Part shown: piece after piece, positions 4,829-19,777 of the stretch
Layout of the letters: each line of letters starts with the position of its first letter
How positions within the stretch are numbered: position 1 is the first letter of the stretch
Source: a virus
Strand: one strand, 5' to 3'
Virus record (IMG/VR): IMGVR_UViG_3300032294_002877
Span: 1 to 64,000 of that record
Length of the DNA: 64,000 nt
Made by a program: the position numbers and the translations under genes
The notes under the pieces: model-generated
The model's input: the letters and a program-made list of their open reading frames with translations, nothing else
Databases searched by the model: none
Told to the model about the DNA's origin: nothing

Positions 4829-6394
4829 ATGCAAAAGTATGGATCGCTTAGTGTTGAAGGTTTAGAGTCTAAACGTTTATTATCAATAGCTCCTAATGAT
4901 TCTCAACTAAATAATCAGTGGGGATTAAATAGTATCTCGGCATATCAAGCATGGGATAGTTCGTCGGGATCTAAGAATGTGGTGGTGGCTATTATAGATT
5001 CTGGGGTGGATCTGGGCCATCCGGATTTAAAAGATAACCTGTGGACGAATCCTGGCGAGATTGCTAACGACGGTATCGATAACGATAACAACGGATACGT
5101 TGACGATATATACGGATGGGATTTTGCATATAACGATAACAATGTTCAAGACGGATACGGCCACGGAACTCATGTGGCTGGTATTATAGGGGCGGTTGGA
5201 AACAACTCTTTGGGTATGTCGGGGGTTAACTGGAACGTGAGTATGATGGTATTAAAGTTTATGGATGATAGTGGTGTGGGATATGGCGATTCTGTTATTA
5301 AAGCTATTGATTATATTTTAATGATGAAAAATACATATGGAATTAATATTGTGGCAGTAAATAATAGTTATGGGGGAACACCAGGATACTCGTCATTGAT
5401 GGATAATAGAATTCAATTACTCAATAATAGTAATGTAATGTTTGTGGCCGCTGCTGGTAATAGTGGGGCGGATAATGATTTGGTGCCAAGGTATCCGTCA
5501 AGTTACTCTGAAAATAATATTATTAGTGTGGGAGCACTAACTAGTACCGACTCTCTGGCAGGATTCTCTAATTATGGAATTACTAGTGTGGATCTGGCTG
5601 CTCCGGGAACTAGTATCTTATCAACATATAAGGGCGGAACTTATACTTATATGAGCGGTACTAGTATGGCCGCTCCTTTTGTAACAGGATCTGTGGCTTT
5701 ATTAAATTCTGCTAAGCCAAATACATCTATGAATGTTATTAAAGATATAATCTTGAGTACCGCTGATAAGATTGATAGTTTAGCAGGAAAGGTTCTGTGT
5801 GGCGGTAAATTGAATTTGGGGGCGGCGATGGCCAAATTAATGGGGGTGTCTTATATCGCTAATAGTATTCCTAATGGATATGTTAGTAATATTACGTTAA
5901 GAAATGTTTATGGATATGCTAGTGATCCTGATGGGGGCGGATCGGTTAGTGTGAAGTTAACTGTGGATGGAAATGATTACTGGTATAGTAACACGGATGC
6001 TAACGGAAACTTTGTTTTTAATATTGAGACCATAGGTTATGGATATCATTCTTTAAAAGTGTGGGCAAAAGATAATCAAAGCGGACAGTGGAGCGTAGTA
6101 GGAGAAGGAGCTGTGAATGTTCCGTATCCCGAAATGAGTGTGAATCGATTGAATATTAGAGGAACATCAGGACGAGCATATAGCGCGGTATGTGGTGACT
6201 CTCCGGTAATTGTTAGAGTGCTGGTCAATGGGCGTTTGGTAGCGAATAGATGGGCGAATATTAGAAACCATGAATTCAATATAGGATTCAGTAGAAGCTG
6301 GTTTCGACGAGGAACAAATGATGTAAGGTTAGAAATCTATGATCCGATTGCGAAACAGATTACCTTGATGCGAGTGACAAGACTAAGGAAATAG
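4829..6394 (+). CDS. S8 subtilisin-like serine protease with planctomycete-type N-terminal motif
   Basis: Catalytic triad motifs IIDSG, HGTHVAG and GTSMAAP; oxyanion AAAGN; N-terminus SLSVEGLESKRLLS. Confidence 0.93.
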   Translation: MQKYGSLSVEGLESKRLLSIAPNDSQLNNQWGLNSISAYQAWDSSSGSKNVVVAIIDSGVDLGHPDLKDNLWTNPGEIANDGIDNDNNGYVDDIYGWDFAYNDNNVQDGYGHGTHVAGIIGAVGNNSLGMSGVNWNVSMMVLKFMDDSGVGYGDSVIKAIDYILMMKNTYGINIVAVNNSYGGTPGYSSLMDNRIQLLNNSNVMFVAAAGNSGADNDLVPRYPSSYSENNIISVGALTSTDSLAGFSNYGITSVDLAAPGTSILSTYKGGTYTYMSGTSMAAPFVTGSVALLNSAKPNTSMNVIKDIILSTADKIDSLAGKVLCGGKLNLGAAMAKLMGVSYIANSIPNGYVSNITLRNVYGYASDPDGGGSVSVKLTVDGNDYWYSNTDANGNFVFNIETIGYGYHSLKVWAKDNQSGQWSVVGEGAVNVPYPEMSVNRLNIRGTSGRAYSAVCGDSPVIVRVLVNGRLVANRWANIRNHEFNIGFSRSWFRRGTNDVRLEIYDPIAKQITLMRVTRLRK

Positions 6395-6498
6395 GCTAAT
6401 AAACTGGCCAATTCTATATGGGTGTGCTTATTTTTTATGGACCACCCGGCGATTTTCAGAAAAATTGCTCATATCATAAGTGAAACAAAAAAACCCCC

Positions 6499-6575
6499 TA
6501 ACTCATTACGGGGCAATAACTTATGGCATGTATCTGGCAAAAATTTGTCGTAAGTACTTGGTGCGTAAAGACTTA
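6499..6575. repeat. Paired 25-bp IHF-like palindrome element, copy 1 (52-bp period)
   Basis: TAACTCATTACGGGGCAATAACTTA (6499-6523) and TAAGTACTTGGTGCGTAAAGACTTA (6551-6575). Confidence 0.75.
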
Positions 6576-6614
6576 CGGCGAGTTTTTTGCGGTGTTGCAA
6601 AATGCAATGCAAAA

Positions 6615-6741
6615 TGCTACACATTGTAGGAAAACGATACAGCCAATATGGCAGTGCCGATATGACAGAATATCGTAACTCTAATCGTGACAATGACTTA
6701 CAACAATTCGAGAAATTTTTTTTCTTTGGCACGACGTGTGC
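6615..6741 (+). promoter_or_regulatory. sigma54-type promoter module 1 (palindromic UAS, IHF-like site, -24/-12 box)
   Basis: TGCTACA-CAT-TGTAGGA at 6615-6631; 25-bp IHF-like site at 6676-6700; TGGCACGACGTGTGC at 6727-6741. Confidence 0.7.
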
Positions 6742-6775
6742 ATTATATAGAAACATAAGAAAGAGAGAGACGAAA

Positions 6776-7006
6776 ATGAGAAACCTGATTGTTCTGAATA
6801 CTAAGGCTGAGTTGATTGCGTTCCTGAATAAGACTTCGATGCATACGCTGGTGAATAGCGTAGCGTTTGCTAGTGATTTGTTGGAAATGGTTCGTGAGAA
6901 CGATAATATTGTGGAAATAAACGAAGATTTGGGATTCGTTGATGATGGTGGATGGATTGAGATTGACGAAATGGGTTATGTTGTGAAGGATTTCGCAATC
7001 TGCTGA
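6776..7006 (+). CDS. Hypothetical protein downstream of sigma54-type promoter
   Basis: ATG after purine-rich leader AAGAAAGAGAGAGACGAAAATG. Confidence 0.65.
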   Translation: MRNLIVLNTKAELIAFLNKTSMHTLVNSVAFASDLLEMVRENDNIVEINEDLGFVDDGGWIEIDEMGYVVKDFAIC

Positions 7007-7341
7007 AAAACATTTGTTCAGTGTTGACAAGCAAAAAACCGATAAGTATACTAGGGAAAAGGAAAACAAATGATAACTCAGGAAATGCGTGATTTGGCGA
7101 ACAATCTAGGGCTCATCGTTTCGAGCGTTTGGGATGGACTTTCCCGCAAATGGATTGTTCATGAGCGAAACGGAGCGTATCATCCTGTTTTCACCACGAA
7201 CGAATATGATAGACTTATGGATGGCTTGCGAAATGGCGGAAAGTTTCGATCCCTCTAAGGTAGGGTGAATATATGTTCAGTGTATTTTTGTTCATTGTGG
7301 CAATAATTCTTATTGGAATCGCGTATCAATAAGATTTGACG

Positions 7342-7419
7342 TAAACCCTTGCGGCATAAACACTTACGACGATTTCGCGGCCAAAAATTTGACGTAACTG
7401 CTTATGCAGCAACGACTTA
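7342..7419. repeat. Paired 25-bp IHF-like palindrome element, copy 2
   Basis: Halves at 7342-7366 and 7395-7419; 53-bp period. Confidence 0.85.
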
Positions 7420-7433
7420 CGCCAAGTTTTGAC

Positions 7434-7448
7434 GCAAACGGTGTGCCA
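7434..7448 (-). promoter_or_regulatory. Minus-strand sigma54 -24/-12 box
   Basis: Reverse complement TGGCACACCGTTTGC matches TGGCAC-N5-TTGC. Confidence 0.65.
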
Positions 7449-7497
7449 AACGTGGTAACCCCCATACTGAGGGGCTGTTGCAAAATGCCGAGCAAAA

Positions 7498-7623
7498 TGC
7501 TACACATTGTAGCAAAACGCTACAGCCAATATGGCGGTGCCAAACTGACAGAATGACGCAACTCTAATAGCGATAACAACTTACAACAATTCGCAAAATT
7601 TTTTTCTTTGGCACGGTATCTGC
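7498..7623 (+). promoter_or_regulatory. sigma54-type promoter module 2
   Basis: Perfect palindrome TGCTACA-CAT-TGTAGCA at 7498-7514; IHF-like site at 7559-7583; TGGCACGGTATCTGC at 7609-7623. Forms a direct repeat of module 1. Confidence 0.72.
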
Positions 7624-7656
7624 ATTATATAGAAGCATAAGAAAGAGAGAAAGAAA

Positions 7657-7800
7657 ATGAGTAAGACGATTAGCAATGCGATGAAAAGAATTCACCAAGA
7701 GGCTAGGATTGCCAAGGCATACGATATGCCGATTATGAATAAGGATATGAAAAAGAATGATGAGGGTGTGAAAAAGTTTTTTGAGAGTCTCAAGAAATAG
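7657..7800 (+). CDS. Small basic hypothetical protein, 47 aa
   Basis: MSKTISNAMKRIHQEARIAKAYDMPIMNKDMKKNDEGVKKFFESLKK after the same purine-rich leader as 6776. Confidence 0.55.
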   Translation: MSKTISNAMKRIHQEARIAKAYDMPIMNKDMKKNDEGVKKFFESLKK

Positions 7801-7803
7801 CCC

Positions 7804-7832
7804 TTGACAAGCCGAATAAACCTATATAGAAT
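7804..7832 (+). promoter_or_regulatory. sigma70-type promoter
   Basis: TTGACA-17-TAGAAT. Confidence 0.75.
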
Positions 7833-7856
7833 ATCACCAACACAAAGGAAAAGAAA

Positions 7857-8099
7857 ATGATTTTCGAAACGATTGACGAACTGAACGAGTATCTGGCAAA
7901 CGGTGGGGATGGTGTTTCGGTTATCGGATGCACGGTGGCTGGGGAGTTGCTGGAGAGCATGAAGAACGAAGCGGTTTTTGCTCGCAAGTGGGGATGGAAA
8001 GGGTTTGCTGTGTTGACGGAATTCTACATGGGTGAGGGTGAGGAAATCTCTTGCAATGAGGATGGCGTGATCGATTATGAGCATCTCTACTTGGGATGA
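7857..8099 (+). CDS. Small acidic hypothetical protein
   Basis: ORF with RBS downstream of the promoter; Asp/Glu-rich. Confidence 0.65.
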   Translation: MIFETIDELNEYLANGGDGVSVIGCTVAGELLESMKNEAVFARKWGWKGFAVLTEFYMGEGEEISCNEDGVIDYEHLYLG

Positions 8100-8487
8100 A
8101 CGATTGTATAGTATTGACGCTCCAGAAATTTCTGCTAGAATAGAATCATAAGAAAGAGAGAAAGAAAAATGAAGACTTGGACACGAGACAATCGCCCGTT
8201 GGTTTGGACGGTGAACGAGAACAACCATGAGACGTACGATCTGTATGTACATGGTGTGTGCGTTGGTGAGGGTATGGATTTCGATACATTCTATGCCATG
8301 TATAAGCAGTACAGAAAGGTTTGAAGATACCACCCAAAAGGGGGATATACATATGTTCTATTGCTTCTGCTGGATTTTCTGCAAAATCGACAATTATTTC
8401 CAGGATAGGTACTGGAAGAAACTTGGGTATTCTAGGTATACTGGGCAGGATGGAAAAGAGTGGTATGTAAGCGATCTAAACTGATCG

Positions 8488-8565
8488 TAAACCCTTGCTA
8501 CCAAACGACTTAGGGTGAATCGGCGGCGCCCAATTTGACGTAACTCCTTGTGCGGTAACGACTTA
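8488..8565. repeat. Paired 25-bp IHF-like palindrome element, copy 3
   Basis: Halves at 8488-8512 and 8541-8565; 53-bp period. Confidence 0.85.
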
Positions 8566-8579
8566 CATGAAATGTTATC

Positions 8580-8594
8580 GCAACTGGTATGCCA
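8580..8594 (-). promoter_or_regulatory. Minus-strand sigma54 -24/-12 box
   Basis: Reverse complement TGGCATACCAGTTGC. Confidence 0.6.
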
Positions 8595-8707
8595 CAAATA
8601 TTTCTCCGTTTGGCATGAAATTATATTTGCTTTTTTGGAAAGATTTCTCTTGCAATGGCCGATAATATCTGTAGAATCAAAGCATCACAAGGAACGAAAG
8701 GGAAACC

Positions 8708-8878
8708 ATGAACGAATTCGAACGAATCATTGGGGATAGCATGATCGACGAGAACGGCAAGGAATGGATCGTGGACGATGCTACGGGTTGGGATCCGATC
8801 ATGGGAGACGACGAAGATTGGATCGACACGGATGATGAGTGGCTCGATGATTTCCAGGGTGAGGAGGAGTTTGCATGA
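8708..8878 (+). CDS. Highly acidic 56-aa protein
   Basis: MNEFERIIGDSMIDENGKEWIVDDATGWDPIMGDDEDWIDTDDEWLDDFQGEEEFA; translated by hand. Confidence 0.65.
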   Translation: MNEFERIIGDSMIDENGKEWIVDDATGWDPIMGDDEDWIDTDDEWLDDFQGEEEFA

Positions 8879-9055
8879 AAACGTACTATATTTACAATGC
8901 GGAAAATGATTTCTACTTGGGCATGGTACTTGCAAAGGATTGGGTGGACGCACGTTCAGTGTACGCCCAGCAGCATGGCGTATCATTCGGTTCAGTGTAC
9001 GCTTGTGCATCACCACTATAGGGGTAATCCCCATTGTGATGGAGATCGGTTGACG

Positions 9056-9133
9056 TAAACCCTTGCGGCGTAAGCACTTAGAGCAAATCGGCGGCGCAAA
9101 ATTTGACGTAAACCCTTACGCCACAATAACTTA
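9056..9133. repeat. Paired 25-bp IHF-like palindrome element, copy 4
   Basis: Halves at 9056-9080 and 9109-9133; 53-bp period. Confidence 0.85.
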
Positions 9134-9148
9134 CGACGAGTTTTCTTA

Positions 9149-9163
9149 GCAAATACTGTGCCA
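9149..9163 (-). promoter_or_regulatory. Minus-strand sigma54 -24/-12 box
   Basis: Reverse complement TGGCACAGTATTTGC. Confidence 0.65.
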
Positions 9164-9206
9164 AAAAATTGTGCTCAAATTGTGGGCATACCCTACTGTA
9201 TCAAAA

Positions 9207-9362
9207 TGCTACACATCTAGGTTATAGGCCGAAATACGCGACGCAAAATGCTACAACACTGTAGCGAAATGCTACGCTCAAAAGTTGGGCACAAAAAATA
9301 GCATAGCGTTTTCCCCGTGAAAATCGAGGAAAAATATTTTTCGGCTTTGGCACGGAAGATGC
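9207..9362 (+). promoter_or_regulatory. sigma54-type promoter module 3
   Basis: TGCTACA half-sites at 9207 and TGCTACA-ACAC-TGTAGCG at 9249-9266; TGGCACGGAAGATGC at 9348-9362. Confidence 0.65.
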
Positions 9363-9396
9363 ATTTATATATGGCATAAGAAAGTGAGAGTGAGAG

Positions 9397-9558
9397 ATGA
9401 TGAATGAGAAAGTGTTCTACGTTTCCGATTGCTGCTATGTTGAGAGTAACCCGGATTATGGGGTTTGCTCCTGCTGTGGTGAGCATTGCGAGATTATCAC
9501 CGATGATAGTTTGGTTTCCGACTACATTCCGGGTTATGATGATGGTGAGGCTTGCTAG
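9397..9558 (+). CDS. Small Cys/Asp-rich protein, 53 aa
   Basis: MMNEKVFYVSDCCYVESNPDYGVCSCCGEHCEIITDD...; follows module 3 leader. Confidence 0.55.
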   Translation: MMNEKVFYVSDCCYVESNPDYGVCSCCGEHCEIITDDSLVSDYIPGYDDGEAC

Positions 9559-9860
9559 TCTCCCTCAGTGTGGGGGTTGTGGATAAGAAAAAGTTTGGTA
9601 TAATACTGGAAAGAGAAAGAGAGAAAGAAAATGACGTATAAAGAAAAACTGATCCGCGAAGTTCACGAAGCCTCTAAGAAAATTACCGATCTTCGTGATA
9701 TGCTGGAGGATGGCGTTCCTGCCAGTAAGCATAAGGCTATCATCAAGCATATTGACGATCTTTCAACATTTATTTTCTATACCCAAGAGACTATCAGCGA
9801 TATGGCTTGACACCGTATCCCTAGTCTGCTAGAATCCGTCATCCTTTGGAGAAAAAGAAA

Positions 9861-10190
9861 ATGAGCAAGTTCCCGATTGTTGAGAAGGCCAAGCGTCAAG
9901 CCCGTATGATTTTTGTTGGTATGGCTATTCCATGCCAGAAGAGTCTAGCGTCCGGTGAGTATGGCCCGATTCGTTGCGAAAAGGTTCTCAAGTTCAATCG
10001 TACCGCTCTGCGGAATATCGGTAAGCGTAAGATTGAAAAGGCCGATCCCCGCCTCGTGGGGGGTGAGGATACCATGATCGTGAAGGTAGGAACACCGGGT
10101 AGTCCGGAGCGTAAAGCGGCTCTTGCCGAACAGTATGCTGCTATTCTGGCATGCGGTGAGGAAATCAGCCCGTTTGCTTGGAAGGAATAG
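9861..10190 (+). CDS. Hypothetical protein
   Basis: GGAG RBS and upstream promoter; basic protein. Confidence 0.65.
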   Translation: MSKFPIVEKAKRQARMIFVGMAIPCQKSLASGEYGPIRCEKVLKFNRTALRNIGKRKIEKADPRLVGGEDTMIVKVGTPGSPERKAALAEQYAAILACGEEISPFAWKE

Positions 10191-10330
10191 TATGAACACC
10201 CGTACACTTCAGGATATTTTGCGAGCCGAACAGGTTCGGCTACCATCCATCACTAACCCTCTCATGCGACGGATAGTGAAAAAGCGTATACAGGTGCTCG
10301 CCCGTACACTACTGTACAGGTATCGAGCTA

Positions 10331-10375
10331 GTCTCACCTAATCCTGCGGATTTGGGATAAGGTGGTATAGTCAGC
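10331..10375 (+). promoter_or_regulatory. Tripartite motif GTCYCA-N10-CGGRTTTG-N12/13-TAGTCAGC, copy 1
   Basis: Recurs 8 times, at 10331, 15559, 22655, 22830, 24235, 24366, 26163 and 26327. Confidence 0.6.
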
Positions 10376-10376
10376 G

Positions 10377-10454
10377 TAAGTCTTTAGCCAGTAAGGACTT
10401 AGAACGAATCGGCGGCGCCCAGTTTGTCGTAACTCCTTATGCAGTAAGGGTTTA
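10377..10454. repeat. Paired 25-bp IHF-like palindrome element, copy 5
   Basis: Halves at 10377-10401 and 10430-10454. Confidence 0.85.
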
Positions 10455-10697
10455 TGATCAAATTATTTTTCTAAAGGTTGGGGCAAAATTGGTCGATAAT
10501 TTATATATAAGGAGAAAAAACCATGTTGACTCTAATTCTTTGGGCTGGTATGCTGGGTTATGGTGTGGGTTATGAGGGATATTCTGATGGGAAACTGTAC
10601 GTTGGTACATATACTCCTAAGGTGGAATATGGGTGGGTTGTGACGGATAGGGGGATTTATTTGGATACGATTCTGGAAAAAAACTGAAATTTTTTGC

Positions 10698-10726
10698 TTG
10701 ACAGGCCGATAAGTATATTGTAGGAT
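10698..10726 (+). promoter_or_regulatory. sigma70-type promoter with GCCGATA spacer box
   Basis: TTGACA-GGCCGATAAGTATATTG-TAGGAT. Confidence 0.75.
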
Positions 10727-10748
10727 TGTGGTATAAGGAGAAAAGAAT

Positions 10749-11057
10749 ATGATTCACGCCGAAGCGGTTAAGATGGTTCGGGGCAAGCGTAATGCTGATC
10801 GTCGCAAGATCGGTAACAATACCTATGCGGAAATCCTATACGATAATACCGTAGCAATTAAGTTGCATAATACCTACGTTGTGAAGATTAACCCAAACGG
10901 TACATATACGTTAAATAGTGGCGGATGGCAGACCGTTACCACTAAGGATAGAATTAACCAGTACAGCCCTGTTAGGGTTTACCAGCGGGATTTTACTTGG
11001 TATGTTAAGATTAACGGCAAGGAATATCCTTTTATGGATGGGATGGTGGTGTCGTAA
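10749..11057 (+). CDS. Hypothetical phage protein
   Basis: AAGGAG RBS; 102-aa ORF. Confidence 0.7.
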   Translation: MIHAEAVKMVRGKRNADRRKIGNNTYAEILYDNTVAIKLHNTYVVKINPNGTYTLNSGGWQTVTTKDRINQYSPVRVYQRDFTWYVKINGKEYPFMDGMVVS

Positions 11058-11344
11058 TGAGTTTTTTCGGATTGTTGATATTGACAATCATTGTGGGGAT
11101 TGGTACAATTATCGTAGGGGCTGTTTTAGCCGAAACCTTTTTATCTATTCTTGACGATTAACATAAAGGAATCCACGGATGGATCTGATAGAACCTATTA
11201 GTTTCGTTTTCGGCGTAATTAGTGGAATTACCGCGTGTTATGCGGTTAGTGATCTGGTGTTCAGCAAGGAGACTAGCAATGAACGCGACGAAATCTGAAA
11301 AACTGTTTCTTATTGGTTCGTTTTTTGCTGGGTGTGTTTTATCG

Positions 11345-11422
11345 TATCTCCTTTGCCTGTAAGAACTTAGGGCAAAAGGGCGGCGCCCGGCTCGCCGTAA
11401 CTCCTTACGCACCAACGACTTA
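11345..11422. repeat. Paired 25-bp IHF-like palindrome element, copy 6
   Basis: Halves at 11345-11369 and 11398-11422. Confidence 0.85.
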
Positions 11423-11701
11423 GAGCGAAAAAAATTTTTCTAAAGATTTTGCTTGACTCTTGCCGATCTATACTGTAGAATCGAATGCAGAAGAAAGAAA
11501 GGTGAGATATGAAAACGAAGAAGCAAAACGCGTACCAAAAAGCGGTTGCTCGCATGGAAAAGGAAACAAGCCGTGCGGTTGCTCATGTGGAATTGCTCCA
11601 GAAGCTATACGCTGAAATGGTCAAAAAAAATGCTAAAGTTTCCTCTTGACAAGTGCCGATTATTCTGGTAGACTGAACCCATCACAACGGAGAAGATTAT
11701 C

Positions 11702-11854
11702 ATGTTCAATTTTGACGAAGTGAACGCGATTCTGGCCGAGATGCGAGATGGTGGTATGGTCGAGCCGATTGACGATCCGACTATCAACGTGGATTTTTGG
11801 GACTGGGCCGATGTGATCGGTGTGGTCGAAGATTTTGAGCCTTTGGAATTTTGA
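11702..11854 (+). CDS. Small acidic protein, 50 aa
   Basis: MFNFDEVNAILAEMRDGGMVEPIDDPTINVDFWDWADVIGVVEDFEPLEF; GGAG RBS and promoter at 11646-11674. Confidence 0.6.
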   Translation: MFNFDEVNAILAEMRDGGMVEPIDDPTINVDFWDWADVIGVVEDFEPLEF

Positions 11855-11864
11855 AGAGGAAGCC

Positions 11865-12122
11865 ATGAGTCACCCTGACCCCTTGTTCGATCCCGATAAC
11901 GTTTTGGAGGATGATATGAACTACGCTGATGATGTTGACGCGTCGAACTACGACGATTATGATGATTTTTACGGCGAGATTGATGCTGATGAATTGGAGA
12001 ACAGTTGGGATGATTCGTATGATGATAGTATGGATGGTGATTCTGAGTCTGCGTTCGGTTCATGCGGATGGGGTTTGGACGAATATTACAACCCCGATAC
12101 CGATCACGGAGATGATTGGTGA
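11865..12122 (+). CDS. Extremely Asp-rich protein
   Basis: GAGG RBS; MSHPDPLFDPDNVLEDDMNYADDVDASNYDDYDDF... Confidence 0.7.
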   Translation: MSHPDPLFDPDNVLEDDMNYADDVDASNYDDYDDFYGEIDADELENSWDDSYDDSMDGDSESAFGSCGWGLDEYYNPDTDHGDDW

Positions 12123-12189
12123 CTTGACTTTTGACAATTGTGTGGTAAACTAGTTTTAGGTTTTAGGGTTTTCTAACTGAAAGGTTTTT

Positions 12190-12600
12190 ATGAACGATTG
12201 GATGATTCTTGCTGGTGTTTTTGGTATTGTTCTTGCTGGTATGGTTACGTTTGCTCTGTATCATATCTATAGTGGTGTTCACTCTACTTTGGCTAATGCC
12301 CAAGTTGGTGAGGTTTACAATTTCGAGTATCTTCAGCCGCATCATGGCGATCCGGTTAGGGTTCTCGCAAGAGTAATTGAGCCTGCGTGTACGCTGAGTG
12401 ATGAGAGTATCCGTAGGCTGAATGCGACTAGTAACTATCGTGTTCACGATCCGGAATTCAAGCGTACTCGTCACCTTGTAACGTGTGAGACTCCGAATGG
12501 TGAGGTTCGACAGTTCTATGCTGAACGTGCAAAGAACGTGCGTCGTCCTCTTCTCGCGGGACTGCTTTTCCGTACAGGTACTGCACACCTGTTCGCGTGA
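12190..12600 (+). CDS. Hypothetical protein with N-terminal TM segment
   Basis: AAAGG RBS; hydrophobic N-terminus. Confidence 0.7.
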   Translation: MNDWMILAGVFGIVLAGMVTFALYHIYSGVHSTLANAQVGEVYNFEYLQPHHGDPVRVLARVIEPACTLSDESIRRLNATSNYRVHDPEFKRTRHLVTCETPNGEVRQFYAERAKNVRRPLLAGLLFRTGTAHLFA

Positions 12601-12630
12601 ACGATTGTTCAGTTCGGTTAACCCTGGCCC

Positions 12631-12708
12631 TAAGTTGTTGCCACGCAATGACTTAGGGTTCGGGGGCGCCACCCGATTTGACGTAACTCCTTATCCTCCA
12701 ACACTTTA
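12631..12708. repeat. Paired 25-bp IHF-like palindrome element, copy 7
   Basis: Halves at 12631-12655 and 12684-12708. Confidence 0.85.
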
Positions 12709-12951
12709 CGTCTCAATAATTTTTTCTATATTTTTCTCTTGACACTTGCCGATTATACTGTAGAATAATCGCATGAACACTAATAACTGCTATGCCGGAT
12801 TTTCGTGGCGTGTTTTCAAAAATAATCGGTTCGCCGGTTATGTTGTGGCTCTGAGCCAGACGGATGCTATACGCAAAGCCGTCGAGAAGTATGGTCGATA
12901 TGTGTGGGTTGAACGGATTACCTATAGTCGGGTCTAGTCAAGGGAATAAAT

Positions 12952-13413
12952 ATGTTCACGGTCAATCATATGAATCGGGTTTTGTGCGAAATCAAGGGAT
13001 TGGGTAGCAAGAGTGTGTTTTCTATTCGTAAGAGTCGCCTGACTTATAGACTTTCTTGCATGAATAGCCAACACCGTGGTGCGATTATTGAGAAGATGAT
13101 TCGGGATAGGTTCATTATGCAGGGTAAGCGGGTTAGGTATATCGGGGGAAGTAATTCGTTCGATATGCTGGTTGATGGTGAGCGTGTGGAAATCAAGTCC
13201 TCTCTGCCTATGGTGATTCCTACCAAGAAGGGTCATACTCTTTTCTATAGGTTTCAGAATATCAAAACTAAGTATTTTGATAAGATTGTACTGGTTTATG
13301 TTAGTCCGAATGGTTTGAGGGTAAAAACTTTCACTAAAAAGACTATGATGAAGATGCTGCGGAAGAGCAAGTATTATGCCAACGGCAAAATGTATGCGTG
13401 TGCGGCAAAATAA
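12952..13413 (+). CDS. Putative PD-(D/E)XK nuclease-fold protein
   Basis: E...FDMLVDGERVEIKSS, resembling the D-x(n)-E-x-K active-site motif. Confidence 0.55.
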   Translation: MFTVNHMNRVLCEIKGLGSKSVFSIRKSRLTYRLSCMNSQHRGAIIEKMIRDRFIMQGKRVRYIGGSNSFDMLVDGERVEIKSSLPMVIPTKKGHTLFYRFQNIKTKYFDKIVLVYVSPNGLRVKTFTKKTMMKMLRKSKYYANGKMYACAAK

Positions 13414-13477
13414 TTCATGGTTGTGTGGTTGACAGCCGATACCGTATAGTATAGAATCTAGACAAAGGGAGAGAAAA

Positions 13478-13984
13478 ATGCCTAACTGGTGCCTGAATAG
13501 ATTGGTTGTTTCTCATAGTGATTCTAGTATGCTTGACCGTTTTATAAAAGCATATAATAGGGGTACTGTTTGTAATGAGTTTCTGCCAGAGCCAAAAGAC
13601 CTTGACCAAGATGACGATATGGGGCCTAATGGTTGGTGGACTTGGAGAATTGAAAACTGGGGAACCAAATGGGACATTGGTGCTGATGAGGGGACTGATA
13701 GGGAAGAATGGCATGGTCGGAAGGCTCAAATTGTAAATAATGAAGTTGTTTGTTCGTTTGACTCTGCTTGGGCTCCTCCTATTGGTTTGTATAAGGAGTT
13801 GGTTCTGCAAGGGTTTAGGGTTGCTGCATCATACTTTGAGCCGGGTATGAGTTTCTGTGGCGAATGGATCGACGGCACTGATAACTATATCGAATACGGT
13901 AATAACAAGAATCTAATTACTAAACAGATTTGGGGGGACTACAATCTCACAGAGTTTTTTGCTGACGATGAAGTAGAAGCCTAA
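13478..13984 (+). CDS. DUF1281/YubB-like ferredoxin-fold protein
   Basis: MPNWCxN start, WRIENWGTKWD and FDSAWAPP motifs. Confidence 0.7.
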   Translation: MPNWCLNRLVVSHSDSSMLDRFIKAYNRGTVCNEFLPEPKDLDQDDDMGPNGWWTWRIENWGTKWDIGADEGTDREEWHGRKAQIVNNEVVCSFDSAWAPPIGLYKELVLQGFRVAASYFEPGMSFCGEWIDGTDNYIEYGNNKNLITKQIWGDYNLTEFFADDEVEA

Positions 13985-13995
13985 TAGGTTCGCTC

Positions 13996-14073
13996 TAAGT
14001 TCTTGATACCAAAGGACTTAGGGCAAACCCGCGCCGCCCGGCTCGACGTAAGTGCTTGGTAGCAAAAGAGTTG
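13996..14073. repeat. Paired 25-bp IHF-like palindrome element, copy 8
   Basis: Halves at 13996-14020 and 14049-14073. The left half contains TATCAAGAACTTA on the minus strand, an exact WATCAANNNNTTR match. Confidence 0.85.
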
Positions 14074-14138
14074 CATCAAAAAAATATTTTTTCAAGAAAC
14101 CCTATTGACAAGCCGATAATAGAGTGTAGAATGATGGA

Positions 14139-14455
14139 GTAAGACAAAACAATATGCGTGGGTCCAAGCGCACGGACTAGATTGGGATAACCTGTACGAT
14201 AAACCCTTACCAGCGATTGCTGTTTGGGTTGCCTAACGGGGTTATACGTTGGGATAGTATACCAGTCTATGGGGGATCGCGTCCTCACCACGCTCCATAC
14301 AACCAGTAACCGTCACCAAGAGCCAGACTAACCGGAACATGATGCTAGCAGTTCATCCGGTTACAGGGAGGTTTCCGTGGGCGGTTTCCATCCGATCCTG
14401 ACAAGGGACAATCGTATGGTCTATAGGAATCGGGGCGTAAAAGATTCCGCTGGTT
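14139..14455 (+). ncRNA. Candidate structured ncRNA, about 310 nt
   Basis: Own promoter (TTGACA 14105 / TAGAAT 14127), no plus-strand ORF, several helices including TAGATTGG/CCAGTCTA, CCTAACG/CGTTGGG, TAACCGGA/TCCGGTTA and GGAATC/GATTCC. Confidence 0.5.
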
Positions 14456-14509
14456 TTTCTTATTGACTTGCCGATAAAGAATGGTATAATAGTGGAATAG
14501 GAGAGAAAA

Positions 14510-14740
14510 ATGACCGTTAACGAACTTATTGAGCAGTTGAAGAATTATCCGTCTGATATGCGTGTGCTTGCTCTTGGTTATGAGGGTGGGTTTGACGATA
14601 TCAATCTGAAAACGGATGATATTGTATTCAATGTGAATAATAAAGATACCTGGTATATGGGTTCTCATGAGACTGTTGATATGTGTGGAGAGTATGGTAA
14701 TAGTGGTGAGAAGTGTTTGATTGTTATAAGGGCTAAATAA
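14510..14740 (+). CDS. Hypothetical phage protein
   Basis: AGGAG RBS; promoter at 14463-14490; MTVNELIEQLKNYP start. Confidence 0.7.
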   Translation: MTVNELIEQLKNYPSDMRVLALGYEGGFDDINLKTDDIVFNVNNKDTWYMGSHETVDMCGEYGNSGEKCLIVIRAK

Positions 14741-14997
14741 TGGAATGGCTTAGTTTTTTTGGTTATCGTCGCCCTATCAACGGTCAGAAAGTTTATTACT
14801 TTGGGCCATATATTGGTGTGTGGCAGGGGAGGTATGAGATTCATAGGGATGATCCTGTGAGTGAACATATTCTTATTTGTGAGGAAACTCCGGGGGTTGT
14901 AGATCGTATGGATGCTCCGTGGTGGATGCCATATGAGGGACAACCAAAGCCACAACGACCAGAAACTGACTATCCAAAGGATTACCCACATGGCTAA
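14740..14997 (+). CDS. Hypothetical protein
   Basis: Overlaps the upstream stop (TAATG). Confidence 0.6.
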   Translation: MEWLSFFGYRRPINGQKVYYFGPYIGVWQGRYEIHRDDPVSEHILICEETPGVVDRMDAPWWMPYEGQPKPQRPETDYPKDYPHG

Positions 14998-15330
14998 AAA
15001 CTTCAAAGACTTGCATACCGTTGATGCAAAAGACATGACCCGTGATCAGGCTATGATCTATGTTATTAACTTTTTTAACTCTCGTATGGCAACAATGAGT
15101 AACTCTCACAGAAATAAGGTTAAAGAGGTTATTGGATTGCATGAGATTGGTACTAGCGAACTCGTTAATAAATATCTGGAGTTGGTCCTTGAAAATTCTT
15201 GATACTAGTTGCAAGTGTGGACGCTGTGATGGGTCTATCTTTCGTGTGGACAAGTATGGTATTCCATGGTACTGGTGTTCTAATTGCGAATGGTGGTACC
15301 TAAAAGACTGGGAAGATGTTTGAATCGTCG

Positions 15331-15408
15331 TAAGTGATTGGGATATAAAGACTTACGACAAAGCGGCGCCACCCGATTCGCCCTAACTCTTTATGCTGCA
15401 ACAACTTA
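15331..15408. repeat. Paired 25-bp IHF-like palindrome element, copy 9
   Basis: Halves at 15331-15355 and 15384-15408. Confidence 0.85.
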
Positions 15409-15470
15409 CGACTAAAATTATTTTTCTAAAGAATCCTCTTGACTATCCCGATAATAGATGTATACTTAGG

Positions 15471-15564
15471 GAGCAAGTAGATTAGGGCCGTTGGCAGAAT
15501 GATATCAAAGAAGCCGCGGTTAAATGCAAGGCCGAGTATGGCATAACCCAATCTATTTGTTTTT
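15471..15564 (+). ncRNA. Candidate small RNA, about 90 nt, with paired 5'/3' ends
   Basis: Starts just after TTGACT-16-TATACT (15439-15466). CAAGTAGATTAGGG pairs with CCCAATCTATTTG (one bulge). Ends in a T run. Confidence 0.5.
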
Positions 15565-15622
15565 CCTAATCCTTCGGATTTGGCTGGAGTGGCTGTAGTC
15601 AGCGAGAATAAAGGAACACTTT

Positions 15623-16018
15623 ATGCAGTGTAGGTCCATTGCTGTTGGTATGATTGAGGAAACTTATGATACATACAAGCGTGTGTGGTCTATCGATGGT
15701 AGTTTGTTTAGCGAATTAAATAAATTCGATATTCCTGTATGGAATAATATGAATAGCGACACAAAACGTGCTGCTATCGAATATGTTTATCAAAATCGCA
15801 ATACTATCGAACTACACTCTGGAGAAGTTGAGTCTTGGGTACAGGCTACGGCATATTTCATGATTATGAATTTTGCTTCTATTTTGAGCCCTGATGTTGA
15901 GCCTGAGATTGAGGTCTTTTTTGACGATATGGATTTTATGATAGACGAAGATGTTTTGACTGATAGTGATGTTCAAGAGCAGATGGGTATTGGAAAAAAT
16001 TTCACTGATAAGTTTTAA
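15623..16018 (+). CDS. Hypothetical protein
   Basis: AAGGA RBS; acidic C-terminus. Confidence 0.65.
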   Translation: MQCRSIAVGMIEETYDTYKRVWSIDGSLFSELNKFDIPVWNNMNSDTKRAAIEYVYQNRNTIELHSGEVESWVQATAYFMIMNFASILSPDVEPEIEVFFDDMDFMIDEDVLTDSDVQEQMGIGKNFTDKF

Positions 16019-16058
16019 AGGTCTTGACAAGAGTTAGCCGATAATGTATACTAGAACC

Positions 16059-16484
16059 ATGAAAGCAAAACAACTACATGGCGAGGTACGATTTCATTTG
16101 AGCAGTGGCGAGCATTATATGCACTGGCAAGTGAAGGTGAAGAAGGGTGGTAAGACTGTGGATGTCTACTATTATGATCCATCTGAATACCAGTTAGAGA
16201 TGAGAGGCTGTAAACTGTGGAATAGGCCGAATAAGGCTAAACAGGTGTTTGAGGCCGGTGTGCATGATGTGAGCGGATGGGTAAGGTGCGAAGAGGTTAT
16301 GCTTCGTAAGGATTTTCATCCTACTCTGCCTATTGACAATCTTGAGAAGTTATTTTATAATCCACTTCGTGATCCTCACTGGCGACGAGAAAGCGACAGC
16401 AACGAATTCATTTGGGATGGTAGCGAGTATGCTACGCTATTAACTAACGGCAAACAAGTTTACATTTTGGAAGAAAGGGTTTAA
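16059..16484 (+). CDS. Hypothetical protein
   Basis: Follows promoter 16024-16052. Confidence 0.65.
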   Translation: MKAKQLHGEVRFHLSSGEHYMHWQVKVKKGGKTVDVYYYDPSEYQLEMRGCKLWNRPNKAKQVFEAGVHDVSGWVRCEEVMLRKDFHPTLPIDNLEKLFYNPLRDPHWRRESDSNEFIWDGSEYATLLTNGKQVYILEERV

Positions 16485-16485
16485 T

Positions 16486-16857
16486 ATGATCAAGTTGGAA
16501 CTGAGTGTTCGTGAGGCTATGAATCTGGCGACGAACTGCCACCTCGATATCTATGAGCGGATCGTAAACGCTTTCGAGGTTGCGTTGGGTGTTAACCAGA
16601 ATAAGATGGTGACGATCACCAGAGGTATGACTCTCGACAATCGTATTGGTTGCATCAAGGCCATTCGACTCCATACTGGTTGGGGATTGAAGGAGGCAAA
16701 GGAGTGGACGGATTTTCTGGTGGGTGGCTGGAAGTACGACAAGTGGAATCCTGCTCCTACTGGTAGGACGCAGAGTATCACTCTCAAGACTCCCGAAGCG
16801 GCTGAAAATCTCCTCCGCGATCTTGTTGGTTTGGGTTGCGAAGGCTATCTTTCGTAA
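16486..16857 (+). CDS. Protein with ribosomal bL12 (L7/L12) C-terminal-domain-like motif
   Basis: RIGCIKAIRLHTGWGLKEAKEWTD resembles the bL12 CTD motif KIxVIKxVRxxTGLGLKEAKxLVE. Confidence 0.7.
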   Translation: MIKLELSVREAMNLATNCHLDIYERIVNAFEVALGVNQNKMVTITRGMTLDNRIGCIKAIRLHTGWGLKEAKEWTDFLVGGWKYDKWNPAPTGRTQSITLKTPEAAENLLRDLVGLGCEGYLS

Positions 16858-16859
16858 CC

Positions 16860-16937
16860 TAAAGCCTTGCAACTAAAGAACTTAGAGCGAGGCAGCGGGG
16901 CCGTGTTTGCCATAAGTCCTTATGTCACAACAACTTA
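16860..16937. repeat. Paired 25-bp IHF-like palindrome element, copy 10
   Basis: Halves at 16860-16884 and 16913-16937. Confidence 0.85.
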
Positions 16938-17131
16938 CAGCCAATCAAAAAAATATTCATGTATCGACCTTGACTTGCCGATACTATATGGTAGAATGAT
17001 AGCATCACACGACAAGACGCTAACTGACCACAACACAAAAAAGTTCAGCCTAGCACTTGACAAGTGATGTTGTCTGATGTATGATTACTTTACTTGGTTC
17101 GATTACACTTTTGGAAAGGTTAGGTTTGACT

Positions 17132-17389
17132 ATGCGTACTTATGATTTTGCGGTTGCTGTTGCTTCTGATTCGCTGGATACCGAGGTGGTTGAGGATACG
17201 ATCAAGCAGGCTCTTGCTGACGGTCTGCCCGATGGTACGCTTGTGGTCGTGAAGGCCCAGGGTATCAAGGACTATTCCGAGCAGGGTTGGAAGGTTGCTC
17301 GTAACCGTAAGTTTGGCGTGAGTGCCAAGGAAGCGGGCGATGCCCACAAGGCGAAGTTGACGCGAATTGACGAGGCGACACCCGCCTGA
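17132..17389 (+). CDS. Hypothetical protein
   Basis: AGGT RBS; upstream TTGACA promoter. Confidence 0.65.
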   Translation: MRTYDFAVAVASDSLDTEVVEDTIKQALADGLPDGTLVVVKAQGIKDYSEQGWKVARNRKFGVSAKEAGDAHKAKLTRIDEATPA

Positions 17390-17399
17390 CAATTCAAAC

Positions 17400-17644
17400 T
17401 GGACTATGCCAGTATAAAGAGATTTTAGGCATAGTGCGGCGGGATTCGTCCCGCGTAATGAGAGTTCGTTGCAGACCTAGGTGCAGCCTAGAGAGGGATT
17501 TAACCAATCCTATAAGACGGGTGGTTCCGTCGAAAGTTGTTGCTCTCTAGAGTTTTATTACTAATATAGATGGTACAACAACGCCAGCAAACCGATAGAC
17601 GCTGACGAGCCCCGGCGGTAGCACCGTCCGGGCTATCGGTCTAT
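17400..17644 (+). ncRNA. Candidate multi-hairpin structured RNA directly upstream of the tRNA cluster
   Basis: Helices ACTATGCC/GGCATAGT, GCGGGA/TCCCGC, CTAGAGAG/CTCTCTAG enclosing two hairpins, ACCGATAG/CTATCGGT, and GTTGTTG/CAACAAC (possible pseudoknot). Confidence 0.55.
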
Positions 17645-17716
17645 GGGGCCATAGTTAAATGGATATAACACGGGATTTCTAATCCTGTATTGTAGGTTCG
17701 ATTCCTACTGGCCCTA
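17645..17716 (+). tRNA. tRNA-Arg(TCT)
   Basis: Acceptor GGGGCCA/TGGCCCT; anticodon loop TT-TCT-AA; GGTTCGATTCC T arm. Confidence 0.9.
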
Positions 17717-17723
17717 CTTTTTT

Positions 17724-17797
17724 GGGGGTGTAGATCAATTGGTTAGATCGTTAGCCTGTCACGCTAAAGGTTGCGGGTTCAAGTCCCGTCACCCTCG
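17724..17797 (+). tRNA. tRNA-Asp(GTC)
   Basis: GGGGGTG/CACCCTC; TTAGC-CTGTCAC-GCTAA. Confidence 0.92.
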
Positions 17798-17800
17798 CTA

Positions 17801-17883
17801 GGTGGATTACTCAAGTGGTCAACGAGGGCAGACTGTAAATCTGCTGGCTTTTGCCTTCGGGAGTTCGAATCTCTCATCCACCA
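17801..17883 (+). tRNA. tRNA-Tyr(GTA)
   Basis: GGTGGAT/ATCCACC; GCAGA-CTGTAAA-TCTGC; long variable arm. Confidence 0.92.
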
Positions 17884-17961
17884 TAAATCCTTACGTGATA
17901 AGCACTTAGGGTAAGGACGCGGGACCGCGTTTGTCGCAAGTCGTTACTGCACAAGCACTTG
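17884..17961. repeat. Paired 25-bp IHF-like palindrome element, copy 11
   Basis: Halves at 17884-17908 and 17937-17961; abuts the tRNA-Tyr 3' end. Confidence 0.8.
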
Positions 17962-18043
17962 CATCAAAAATATTTTTTCTACAGTTTTTCTCTTGACCAT
18001 ACCGATACCATAAGGTAGAATCGGTAGACACACGGAGAAAGAT

Positions 18044-18748
18044 ATGAAAACTGCTGATGGTAACGATAAGTTGGGTAAGGGTTGCATTGTGGTTTCGCGT
18101 CCGGTTGGCGACACTTGCCCACCCGATTGTGATTATCTTGGTAATGGCTGCTATGCCGAGGCTACCGAGAATCAGTACAAAAATGCCCGTACTGCCGGGT
18201 TTGCTAATGTTGTTACAGAAAAGCATAAGATTCGCTCTATGATTCTTGACGCTAAAAAGCGTGAGAAAAGTATCCGTTGGCATGAGCGTGGCGATTGGTT
18301 TCTCAATGGCGAACTTGACCTAGACTATCTTGCTAATGTAACGTGGGCTTGTGAAAGTATACTTGCCGATGGCGATACTCTACCCGATATGTGGTTTTAT
18401 ACTCATATCTACGATAATCGTCTGGTAAGTCTTAGTAAGTATATGGCAGTATATGCCAGTGTCCATGACGATAAGGATATGGGCGAGGCTATGGCACAAG
18501 GTTTCAAACTGTTCGCGTGGTGCGACAGCGATATGAAGATTGCCCCAAAGCGTCCCAAGCACAAGCCGAAAGCCGAGGCTTGGCGTAAGGCGTTGCCAAA
18601 ACTTGTTGTGTTGAACGGCGAGAAGTTTGTAACGTGTCCAGAGATTCGTCGTGGTCGTGCGGTTATTACTTGTACGGGCACGAAGGATAGTATCGAGTGT
18701 AATATGTGCGTCAAGGGTTTGGCTAACGTGTTATTTCCTGCTCACTAG
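18044..18748 (+). CDS. Gp88-like Cys-rich protein (possible Fe-S/radical-SAM-like)
   Basis: TCPPDCDYLGNGCYA, IRWHERGDW and C-terminal TCPE...C...CNMC motifs. Confidence 0.55.
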   Translation: MKTADGNDKLGKGCIVVSRPVGDTCPPDCDYLGNGCYAEATENQYKNARTAGFANVVTEKHKIRSMILDAKKREKSIRWHERGDWFLNGELDLDYLANVTWACESILADGDTLPDMWFYTHIYDNRLVSLSKYMAVYASVHDDKDMGEAMAQGFKLFAWCDSDMKIAPKRPKHKPKAEAWRKALPKLVVLNGEKFVTCPEIRRGRAVITCTGTKDSIECNMCVKGLANVLFPAH

Positions 18749-18922
18749 GATTTGCTATGAAATATTGGGAAAAAATTGAAGACGATAAAGTTAGAAGTGT
18801 TTGGCGTTGCCCATTATGTACTGATGAAGTAAACATTGAACCTTCTTGGTATCAGTATAATGGTACTCCAATGTGTGTCGATTGTGACGAAGATATGTAC
18901 TATCTAAAAACGGAGACTAATC

Positions 18923-19776: not shown

Positions 19777-19777
19777 C

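Follow-up and report, generated by a model that had tools for sequence, protein, structure and literature searches.

Putative sigma54-type promoters with upstream activator-site arrays in the early region of a large phage of a likely planctomycete host

The early small-gene region of this phage contains three modules that are probably genuine sigma54 (RpoN)-dependent, enhancer-activated promoters run by the phage on host factors. Phage early transcription usually relies on host sigma70 and then on phage-made factors, and sigma54 stays inactive until triggered by a signal-activated ATPase. The complete cis-architecture of the modules can be read in the DNA, is conserved across dozens of uncultured phages, and matches a motif of the probable host family. 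It therefore provides a concrete, testable case for a virus tying part of its early programme to a specific host signalling pathway.

Boxes, arrays, and associated genes

Sigma54 promoters require RpoN and start transcription about 11–13 nt 3' of the GC doublet; their consensus is said to have been given by Barrios and co-workers in 1999 as mrNrYTGGCACG-N4-TTGCW. Three plus-strand (class A) boxes were examined: TGGCACGACGTGTGCA at 6727–6742 (module 1), TGGCACGGTATCTGCA at 7609–7624 (module 2), and TGGCACGGAAGATGCA at 9348–9363 (module 3), with predicted starts at approximately 6753–6755, 7635–7637, and 9374–9376, respectively. All three read TGGCACG-N4-NTGCA, and the spacing between their GG and GC doublets is exactly 10 bp, as an earlier note on this DNA had claimed, and every sequence quoted in that note was found where it had been placed. 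The boxes agree with this consensus at all conserved positions except −14. TGGCAC-N6-TGC occurs six times on the two strands of the window (the entire 64,000-nt stretch analyzed) compared to 0.16 expected, and none of 100 shuffles reached six. Plus-strand boxes are restricted to 6727, 7609, and 9348 in the whole 180,460-bp phage genome. A leader, ATAAGAAAG(A/T)GAGA, is common to the three modules (6755, 7637, and 9376), which confirms the shared leader that had been noticed before the small ORFs; in module 1 the predicted start falls at CATAAGAAAGAGAGA. One leader (ATAAGAAAGAGAG) is preceded by either a box or TTGACA-N17-TAGAAT, and the predicted +1 positions agree within about 2 nt. The sequence data as a whole support boxes that behave as sigma54 −24/−12 promoters under selection. 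The modules also have a conserved (A/C)TTTATATA in the interval from −12 to +1, which does not belong to the sigma54 promoter pattern and hints at an extra requirement.

Each box is preceded by an array of activator-type sites. The array unit, missed in the earlier note, is a 15-bp dyad, GTWGCAAAATGCWAC, with the repeated core GCAAAATGC, present in 2–4 copies per module. The module 1 array (6594–6640, plus strand) has three units (6594–6608, 6606–6620, and 6626–6640); the first two have their cores at 6597 and 6609, and the third, GTAGGAAAACGATAC, is degenerate. The module 2 array (7477–7523, plus strand) has cores at 7480, 7492, and 7512, its outer sites are 32 bp apart center to center, and it contains a perfect 17-bp palindrome at 7498–7514. 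The module 3 array (9198–9275, plus strand) consists of units at 9198–9212 (GTATCAAAATGCTAC), 9240–9254, and 9261–9275, with cores at 9243 and 9264. The TGCTACA-N3/4-TGTAG palindromes proposed previously as the upstream activating sequence (UAS) are present at 6615, 7498, and 9249 (zero expected), with start-to-start distances to the box of about 112, 111, and 99 bp. However, the palindrome is not the unit: the 17-bp TGCTACA-N3-TGTAGCA is the junction between two neighboring 15-bp GTWGCAAAATGCWAC dyads spaced 20–21 bp apart. At least two dyad-symmetric sites lie upstream of the box, as expected for an enhancer of a bacterial enhancer-binding protein (bEBP), where such sites are placed about 70–200 bp upstream, and the last core is 74–118 nt from the box. 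Coupling of the boxes to an upstream activator-site array at approximately −75 to −150 is supported by this arrangement.

In this promoter class, an IHF site or bend between the UAS and the promoter is frequent and not obligatory. The 25-bp elements described as IHF-like in the earlier note are present at 6676–6700 and 7559–7583 (plus strand), where they separate the array from the box of modules 1 and 2, but their assignment to IHF is not supported. Each is a single copy of the phage's own TAAGTCCTTA-N5-TAAGGACTTA palindrome family (D6; TAAnTCnTTA-N5-TAAnGACTTA), and the best match to the IHF consensus WATCAANNNNTTR had two mismatches, which is background density. Module 3 and about half of the related modules lack the palindrome copy, and a search of the phage found no HU/IHF gene. 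A conserved AAAAATATTTTT tract precedes the module 3 box. This tract and the palindrome copy are candidate substitutes for an IHF bend, and the copy at 6676–6700 is possibly a bend or protein site.

Three additional sigma54-like boxes, overlooked in the earlier note, are located on the minus strand (class B). Box TGGCACACCGTTTGC (7434–7448) is divergent from module 2, lies 32 bp from its array, and points into a double palindrome at 7342–7419. Box TGGCACAGTATTTGC (9149–9163) is divergent from module 3 and lies 35 bp from the first array unit. To the right of box TGGCATACCAGTTGC (8580–8594) there is an apparent decayed class A box, TTTGGCATGAAATTATAT (8609–8626), which has no array and is followed by a sigma70-type promoter.

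The first genes of the modules, all on the plus strand, encode small proteins. Module 1 begins with a 76-amino-acid protein of no family (6776–7006), homologues of which follow a class A box in four related contigs (L001, L039, L044, and L046). The first protein of module 2 (7657–7800) has 47 amino acids and also belongs to no family; its homologue in contig L023 begins about 40 nt past a class A box at 8520–8534. Module 3 begins with a Cys-rich 53-amino-acid protein (CC..CSCC..HC; 9397–9558), and its linkage to a class A box is kept in six contigs (L008, L020, L043, L004, L039, and L033). No Pfam or PHROG family was found for any of the small early proteins, and no Rfam family was found in the region 6300–10000.

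Conservation in related phages

The boxes are kept across related viral contigs, which make up a widespread family. To avoid circularity, 27 non-redundant modules were picked by the presence of at least two upstream cores alone, without use of the box. TGGCAC-N5-NNGC was found 74–118 nt downstream in 25 of these modules; TGGCAC is invariant in the 25, TGC is present in 24, and the spacer positions are nearly information-free. The GG/GC spacing, whose loss in related phages would have refuted the reading according to the earlier note, is kept in 25 of 27 modules. When loci were ascertained by the palindrome, the box was present in 13 of 13 family members compared to none of 12 chance hits. Array-to-box distances (116, 115, and 103 in the window) fall into discrete classes of 93–95, 102–104, and 114–116 nt, about one helical turn apart, and this phasing rests on few independent events because the classes represent only three or four module lineages. 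A search of a cultured-phage collection found no similar DNA, and an rIIA search returned distant relatives only.

Host factors and matching sites in the probable host family

A small-genome planctomycete of the Pirellulales is the likely host. The DUF1501 protein encoded by the phage shares 79–81% identity with a chromosomal orthologue adjoining rpoA/rplQ in Pirellulales MAGs, in agreement with the planctomycete host guessed in the earlier note; the assignment is based on this gene, a single recent acquisition, and on a subtilase with 50% identity. The closest host-family genomes have about 61% G+C compared to 33–46% for the phage, with one phage-family member at 46%. The four genomes nearest the phage DUF1501 gene, standing in for the inferred host, carry one rpoN each (4/4) and 9–13 bEBPs. 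L095 was considered as a phage contig within a host MAG and set aside; it has no similarity to the phage family.

Profile searches of the phage genome with PF00158, PF04552, PF04963, PF02954, and PF04542 found no sigma54, bEBP, or sigma70-family gene. The only weak AAA+ match, to PF00158 at 66.2 kb, was rejected as a bEBP and corresponds to RuvB. No sigma54 or bEBP gene was found in 12 related contigs (two complete genomes among them), where only RuvB-sized matches were obtained. The earlier note allowed for either a phage-encoded or a host bEBP. The activator is most likely a host bEBP, because no phage of the family encodes one and the same core occurs at sigma54 promoters of the host family.

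The pattern GCRAAAYGC-N{72,101}-TGGCAC-N6-TGC matched in 14 of 101 host-family genomes, compared to 1 of 101 for a composition-matched swapped core and 2 of 101 Verrucomicrobiota genomes for the real core. Most host matches have a second core 13–32 bp away and boxes of the form TGGCACG-N4-[GCA]TGCA, as in the phage. Flanking positions outside the search pattern are also shared by the host sites and those of the phage, with G-T-W to the left and C at +3. The 12-mer alone gave 18 matches in 15 host-family genomes compared to one for the control; four of about 13 independent loci have a box 75–125 nt downstream, and some loci (L148 and L150-type) have sites without a canonical box. The earlier note had proposed a host motif scan as a route to the regulon and its bEBP. 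Such a scan shows enrichment of the core, but it tied no bEBP to the site: no site cluster adjoined a bEBP gene in 20 neighborhoods of host-family genomes G877 and G842. The putative host regulon would drive ECF sigma factor, secreted subtilase, and other exported-protein genes, and it may be a stress or envelope response. The finding defines an uncharacterized planctomycete sigma54 regulon, and the architecture is a sequence-based handle linking these phages to Pirellulales hosts.

Wider scans were less specific. A global species-genome scan with the 12-mer plus box gave 11 matches, and it did not define the host because this is approximately chance level and the five real-looking sigma54 promoters among the matches come from five different phyla, with unrelated downstream genes. 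When 401 Planctomycetota and 401 Verrucomicrobiota genomes were scanned for tandem cores, the matches were simple repeats of the AAATGC type with no box. GCAAAATGCTACAaaaaTGTAG is present at one Opitutales amtB promoter, but the site is unique in that genome, and amtB loci with a sigma54 box in eight host-family genomes have no such core. The NtrC nitrogen regulon was dropped as a candidate on these grounds; the sigma54 promoters of host-family amtB lack the phage-type site, and therefore the regulator is probably not NtrC.

Proposed mechanism, alternatives, and known systems

We propose that host RNA polymerase with sigma54 would sit on TGGCACG-N4-NTGCA as a closed complex, and that a host bEBP would occupy the 2–4 GTWGCAAAATGCWAC dyads centered about 75–150 bp upstream. 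The bEBP would contact the polymerase via DNA looping, with help from the A/T tract and also, for modules 1 and 2, from the palindrome in between. Promoter opening by the bEBP would lead to transcription from the CATAAGAAAGAGAGA leader of the small early genes. Binding, looping, activation, and timing, as well as the identity of the bEBP and its signal, are what we infer from the DNA. The phage appears to have a constitutive early set and a set conditional on one host regulator, because neighboring genes have ordinary TTGACA-N17-TAGAAT promoters. The activator sites are shared with host-family sigma54 promoters, and therefore expression of the conditional genes probably requires that a particular host regulator be active. 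A broader version of this reading is speculative, and we hold it with low confidence: the enhancer and promoter of a single host sigma54 regulon may have been copied by a whole family of large planctomycete phages, for which the host regulator may act as a sensor. A dedicated early block would then fire only while the host response is active, and infection itself is a possible trigger of that response. In that version the divergent class B boxes next to the arrays would produce RNAs, antisense or small, that run across the sigma70-driven module before them, amounting to a sigma70-to-sigma54 switch.

Other readings of the modules were considered. The promoters could be sigma54 promoters whose array is bound by a phage protein of no known family (a new activator or a bEBP-recruiting adaptor). 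The modules would then form a class, delayed-early or middle, whose timing is set by the phage and not by host physiology. Such a protein would suit the confinement of the arrays to three places in the phage genome and their conservation across the phage family, the abundance of small early proteins without a family, the linkage of the conserved Cys-rich 53-amino-acid protein to a module, and the failure to tie a host bEBP to the site. Nevertheless, we regard it as unlikely. Only AAA+ bEBPs are known to activate sigma54 (we know of no activator outside that family), none was found in 13 phage records, and the core is enriched at chromosomal sigma54 promoters of the probable host family, where there is no phage protein.

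In another reading, sigma54 is not involved. TGGCAC/TGC and the conserved TATATA, which is placed where a −10 element would yield the same start site, would be recognized by sigma70 polymerase aided by an upstream activator, or else by a polymerase that the phage has modified, and the palindromes would serve as operators or as terminators on the minus strand; a terminator scan does mark 7514–7498 and 9265–9250 (minus strand) as weak hairpin-plus-T sites. This is very unlikely given that there is no −35 element, that the invariant TGGCAC would fall in the sigma70 spacer, and that TATATA lacks the key final T and is lost in L045 although the box is retained. Most array units are direct GCAAAATGC repeats and not hairpins, the phage has no sigma70-family gene, and bona fide −24/−12 boxes are found at host chromosomal promoters with the same core. 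Least probable in our judgment is unproductive binding of sigma54 holoenzyme, with the boxes serving for parking or titration: they would separate the early modules as roadblocks or insulators, or act as a sink silencing host sigma54 regulons. Sigma54 holoenzyme does form stable closed complexes, and many non-promoter sites are described for Escherichia coli (PMC4591121). The class B boxes are also closer to consensus and are directed away from genes; some of them are paired face to face or lack an array. However, a decoy would need none of the class A features, namely the constant placement of the box with respect to a translated leader that sigma70 promoters also use, the conserved upstream array at phased distances, and the conserved downstream genes. 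Each genome has only three to six sites.

Enhancer-activated sigma54 promoters run on host factors, the reading we favor, have a phage precedent. [quoted passage not shown] The YuA record (NC_010116) annotates three −24/−12 promoters, fragments of which were active in a promoter trap, and no sigma54 gene. YuA is thus similar as a virulent phage without an annotated sigma54 gene that relies on host sigma54 and has three −24/−12 promoter fragments. Its promoters, however, are in the structural (late) region at 38.4, 40.9, and 47.2 kb and not in an early small-gene region, and its boxes are weak consensus matches (e.g., AGGCACAACACTGGC), whereas those described here are near-perfect. No upstream array is annotated or evident in YuA, in contrast to the conserved multi-site enhancers matching a host-family motif, and the phage described here belongs to a large uncultured family in which the architecture recurs. 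To our knowledge, YuA is the one studied precedent for sigma54 use by a phage, and we know of no enhancer or signal there.

Among bacterial promoters, glnAp2-NtrC, pspA-PspF, and nifH-NifA also combine a TGGCAC-N5-TTGC box with at least two dyads about 80–150 bp upstream. The two NtrC sites of glnAp2 are 32 bp apart, like the outer sites of module 2, and the NtrC dyad GCACC-AAAAT-GGTGC shares a 5-5-5 layout with an A/T center with GTAGC-AAAAT-GCTAC of the phage. The phage modules differ in site sequence (we know of no UAS with this one), in having no IHF consensus, and in being carried by a virus. Each module would offer a compact, orthogonal, signal-gated promoter cassette.

Sites for host regulators are carried by other phages as well. 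Some promoters of T4-like cyanophages carry sites for NtcA, a CRP-family activator of sigma70-type promoters (GTA-N8-TAC), and cyanobacteria are not known to have sigma54. Sites for a host global regulator in phage genes tie part of the programme to the host's physiological state, as proposed here, but on sigma70-type promoters with no enhancer or looping. In T4-type phages, promoter-early stem-loop (PeSL) cassettes are repeated promoter cassettes that flank small, fast-evolving early genes and are known to contain sigma70 early promoters only, whereas the modules described here have sigma54-type boxes. Exchange of modules by recombination seems to be a shared feature: modules 1 and 2 are 85% identical across 130 nt, and the same gene follows a class A box in only some of the relatives.

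Sigma54-type promoters in the early region

The 180,460-bp IMG/VR virus record whose first 64 kb form the window is rated complete by CheckV. The window encodes rIIA, an ATP-dependent DNA ligase, a GlmS-like amidotransferase, a subtilase, two DUF1501 proteins, and eleven tRNAs. Small ORFs without known family extend across 6.4-23 kb, and near-consensus TTGACA-N17-TAGAAT promoters precede them, which fits an early region of host-takeover type. G+C is 41-47% in this small-gene region (6000-23000) compared to 31-38% in window 24000-64000.

Three modules in the early region consist of an upstream array and a plus-strand box of the form TGGCACG-N4-NTGCA (class A; 6727, 7609, and 9348 for modules 1, 2, and 3). 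The earlier note had read them as enhancer-dependent sigma54 promoters, and every sequence that it quoted was found in place. TGGCAC-N6-TGC has six copies in the window (0.16 expected), and the only three plus-strand copies in the whole genome are those of modules 1-3. The TGCTACA-N3/4-TGTAG palindromes upstream are also unique (0 expected). Modules 1 and 2 share 85% identity across ~130 nt, and module 3 has only the functional pieces in common with them.

Two IMG/VR pattern scans (box plus TATATA, and palindrome) picked up ~30 contigs from a related phage family, and some are 100-220 kb long. Conservation was then re-asked without circularity using three anchors: the leader, the palindrome, and at least two upstream cores. 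Upstream of each ATAAGAAAGAGAG leader in these phages is either a canonical sigma70 promoter or TGGCAC-N5-NTGC-ATTTATATA, and the starts predicted from the two types agree within ~2 nt. From the palindrome, a box lies 93-116 nt downstream in 13 of 13 non-redundant family loci compared to 0 of 12 chance matches. Anchoring on the cores placed a box in 25 of 27 non-redundant modules; among these 25, TGGCAC never varies, 24 have TGC (the other has CGC), and the four or five spacer positions are almost uninformative. Invariant contact bases with a free spacer are the pattern that would be expected under selection on the sigma54 contact bases. The GG/GC spacing, on which the earlier note had staked its reading, is thus kept in related phages. 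Palindrome-to-box distances cluster at 93-95, 102-104, and 114-116 nt, in steps of about one helical turn. This is suggestive, with three or four module lineages behind it. A conserved (A/C)TTTATATA (TATATA) sits between -12 and +1 of the modules and has no explanation in sigma54; the most divergent relative (L045) has lost this element and retains the box.

Alignment of all modules shows that the repeated upstream unit is a core, GCAAAATGC, which with its flanks forms a 15-bp dyad, GTWGCAAAATGCWAC. Each module has two to four of these units; module 2 has its cores at 7480, 7492, and 7512, with the outer pair 32 bp apart. Across the 180-kb genome, GCAAAATGC cores occur only in the three modules. 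The TGCTACA-N3-TGTAGCA palindrome, previously taken as the upstream activator site itself, is the junction of two dyad units 20-21 bp apart. An IHF-like site had also been proposed for the 25-bp element of modules 1 and 2, but the IHF consensus is no better than background there, and no HU/IHF gene was found in the phage. Module 3 and about half of the related modules lack this element, which is a member of a phage palindrome family, TAAGTCCTTA-N5-TAAGGACTTA, with fourteen phased doublets (53-bp period, GC-rich spacer) at window 6499-22513. The doublets separate early gene modules, are usually followed by a AAAAATATTTTT tract and then a TTGACA-N17-TAGAAT promoter, and are also present in related phages; possible roles are module boundary, terminator, or recombination cassette. 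The AAAAATATTTTT tract is conserved immediately upstream of nearly all boxes.

Probable host and its sigma54 promoters

Domain searches of the phage genome found no Sigma54 domains, Sigma54_activat, HTH_8, or sigma70 region 2, and the single weak AAA+ match is RuvB. Twelve related contigs, two of them complete (223 and 153 kb), gave only RuvB-sized matches. The search for phage rpoN or bEBP genes that the earlier note had suggested therefore returned none, and the factors most likely come from the host.

The DUF1501 protein of the phage shares 79-82% identity with proteins assigned by name to Planctomycetota and Pirellulales MAGs. The orthologue of one MAG sits behind a PSCyt2/PSD1 gene and beside rpoA and rplQ, a chromosomal context. 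The closest of 121 Pirellulales genomes are four small ones, G877, G842, G891, and G819 (3-4 Mb each), each of which has one rpoN and 9-13 bEBPs. The phage subtilase (4829-6394) shares 50% identity over 334 aa with a subtilase (L098) from the family of G877, the probable host family, and both have the planctomycete-type N-terminal motif L-E-x-(K/D)-R; the host gene has an upstream sigma54 promoter bearing the same core as the phage. A gene pair at 47280-50404 encodes a 627-aa protein and then the DUF1501 protein, for which identity to the chromosomal Pirellulales orthologue is 79-81%; a second DUF1501 gene lies further on (54146-55387). The pair is best read as copied from a planctomycete host, and the copies have drifted to phage G+C (~38% compared to ~61%). 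One 15,640-bp contig of the phage family (NZWA01000009.1, listed as both L057 and L033) has been placed in a marine 'Flavobacteriales' MAG, probably as a binning artefact, because the phage promoters are of the TTGACA/TAGAAT type, which is not known as the Bacteroidota promoter type.

A search of 101 genomes of the G877 family for the phage core, spaced from a box as in the phage (GCRAAAYGC-N{72,101}-TGGCAC-N6-TGC), matched 14 compared to one for the reversed control. When the core was swapped for a composition-matched one (GCYAAARGC) and the box kept, 1 of 101 matched; the true pattern matched 2 of 101 Verrucomicrobiota genomes. Most host matches are accompanied by another core at 13-32 bp, in either orientation, and GCAAAATGCAAC-N8-GTTGCATTTTGC is kept between orthologous host promoters despite diverged flanks. 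Host boxes are phage-like, TGGCACG-N4-[G/C/A]TGCA (TGGCACGACATGTGCA at host locus L096, TGGCACGACGTGTGCA at window 6727), and host and phage sites agree at flanking positions outside the search pattern. The 12-mer GTWGCAAAATGC alone gave 18 matches in 15 host-family genomes compared to one for the control, with a box 75-125 nt downstream in four of ~13 independent loci. In three genomes these host promoters precede genes for ECF sigma factors; the other products are a subtilase, a secreted protein, and a TPR protein that carries an RNA polymerase alpha C-terminal domain. Judged by these matches, the host family uses the phage's enhancer core. As for its activator, no site cluster lies beside any bEBP gene in two host-family genomes.

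NtrC was considered as the regulator from an Opitutales amtB promoter with GCAAAATGCTACA-N4-TGTAG; this lead is not general, because host-family amtB promoters have sigma54 boxes and no such site. Tandem perfect sites, GTAGCAAAATGCAAC and GTTGCAAAATGCAAC, occur 18 bp apart in G891 (contig 25, 25323-25355; L084/L148) with no sigma54 box within 230 nt, and a conserved three-site array at three other loci (L150, L152, L160) is also without a canonical box.

Comparison with phage YuA

Sigma54 use by a phage, which the earlier note took to be undescribed, is rare but has been described. A passage in one paper states that development of Pseudomonas phage YuA depends strictly on host sigma54 (PMC5053324), and another gives a mapped start site for a sigma54-like YuA promoter (PMC10914365). 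In the GenBank record of YuA, three fragments from the region of the structural genes are annotated as active and as having a '-24/-12 consensus'. On sequence grounds, the present phage differs from this known use in box quality (near-perfect, whereas YuA boxes are weak), early location, complete and conserved enhancer arrays that match the host-family motif (in YuA an enhancer is not evident), and spread of the architecture over a large uncultured phage family. Overall, the observation itself is confirmed, and the core of its interpretation as sigma54 enhancer promoters is supported, with corrections to the activator-site unit, IHF, and novelty.

Minus-strand boxes and possible cassette exchange

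Pattern matching also identified three minus-strand boxes, TGGCAY-N5-TTGCT (class B; 7434-7448, 8580-8594, and 9149-9163), which are closer to the sigma54 consensus than class A. For two of the three, an array is 32-40 bp away and the class A box is divergent, and all three are aimed into palindrome doublets, away from genes. Relatives have such boxes in both orientations at a variable 10-45 nt from the palindrome, sometimes as face-to-face pairs (for example, 12796/12831 in related contig L013). Class B boxes may serve as divergent promoters of antisense or small RNAs, or as sites of parked polymerase.

To the right of 8594, window 8595-8680 contains TTTGGCATGAAATTATAT, which looks like an internally deleted class A box; it has no array, and the downstream genes are now behind a sigma70-type promoter (TTGCAA-N16-TAGAAT). 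This is an apparent decayed module. Homologues of the module 1 gene have a class A box upstream in some relatives and lack it in others, so promoter cassettes look exchangeable. The gene at window 9397-9558 encodes a conserved Cys-rich 53-aa protein (FYVSDCC...CSCCGEHC) that matches no family and probably binds zinc. In at least six related phages, this gene comes first after module-3-type promoters.
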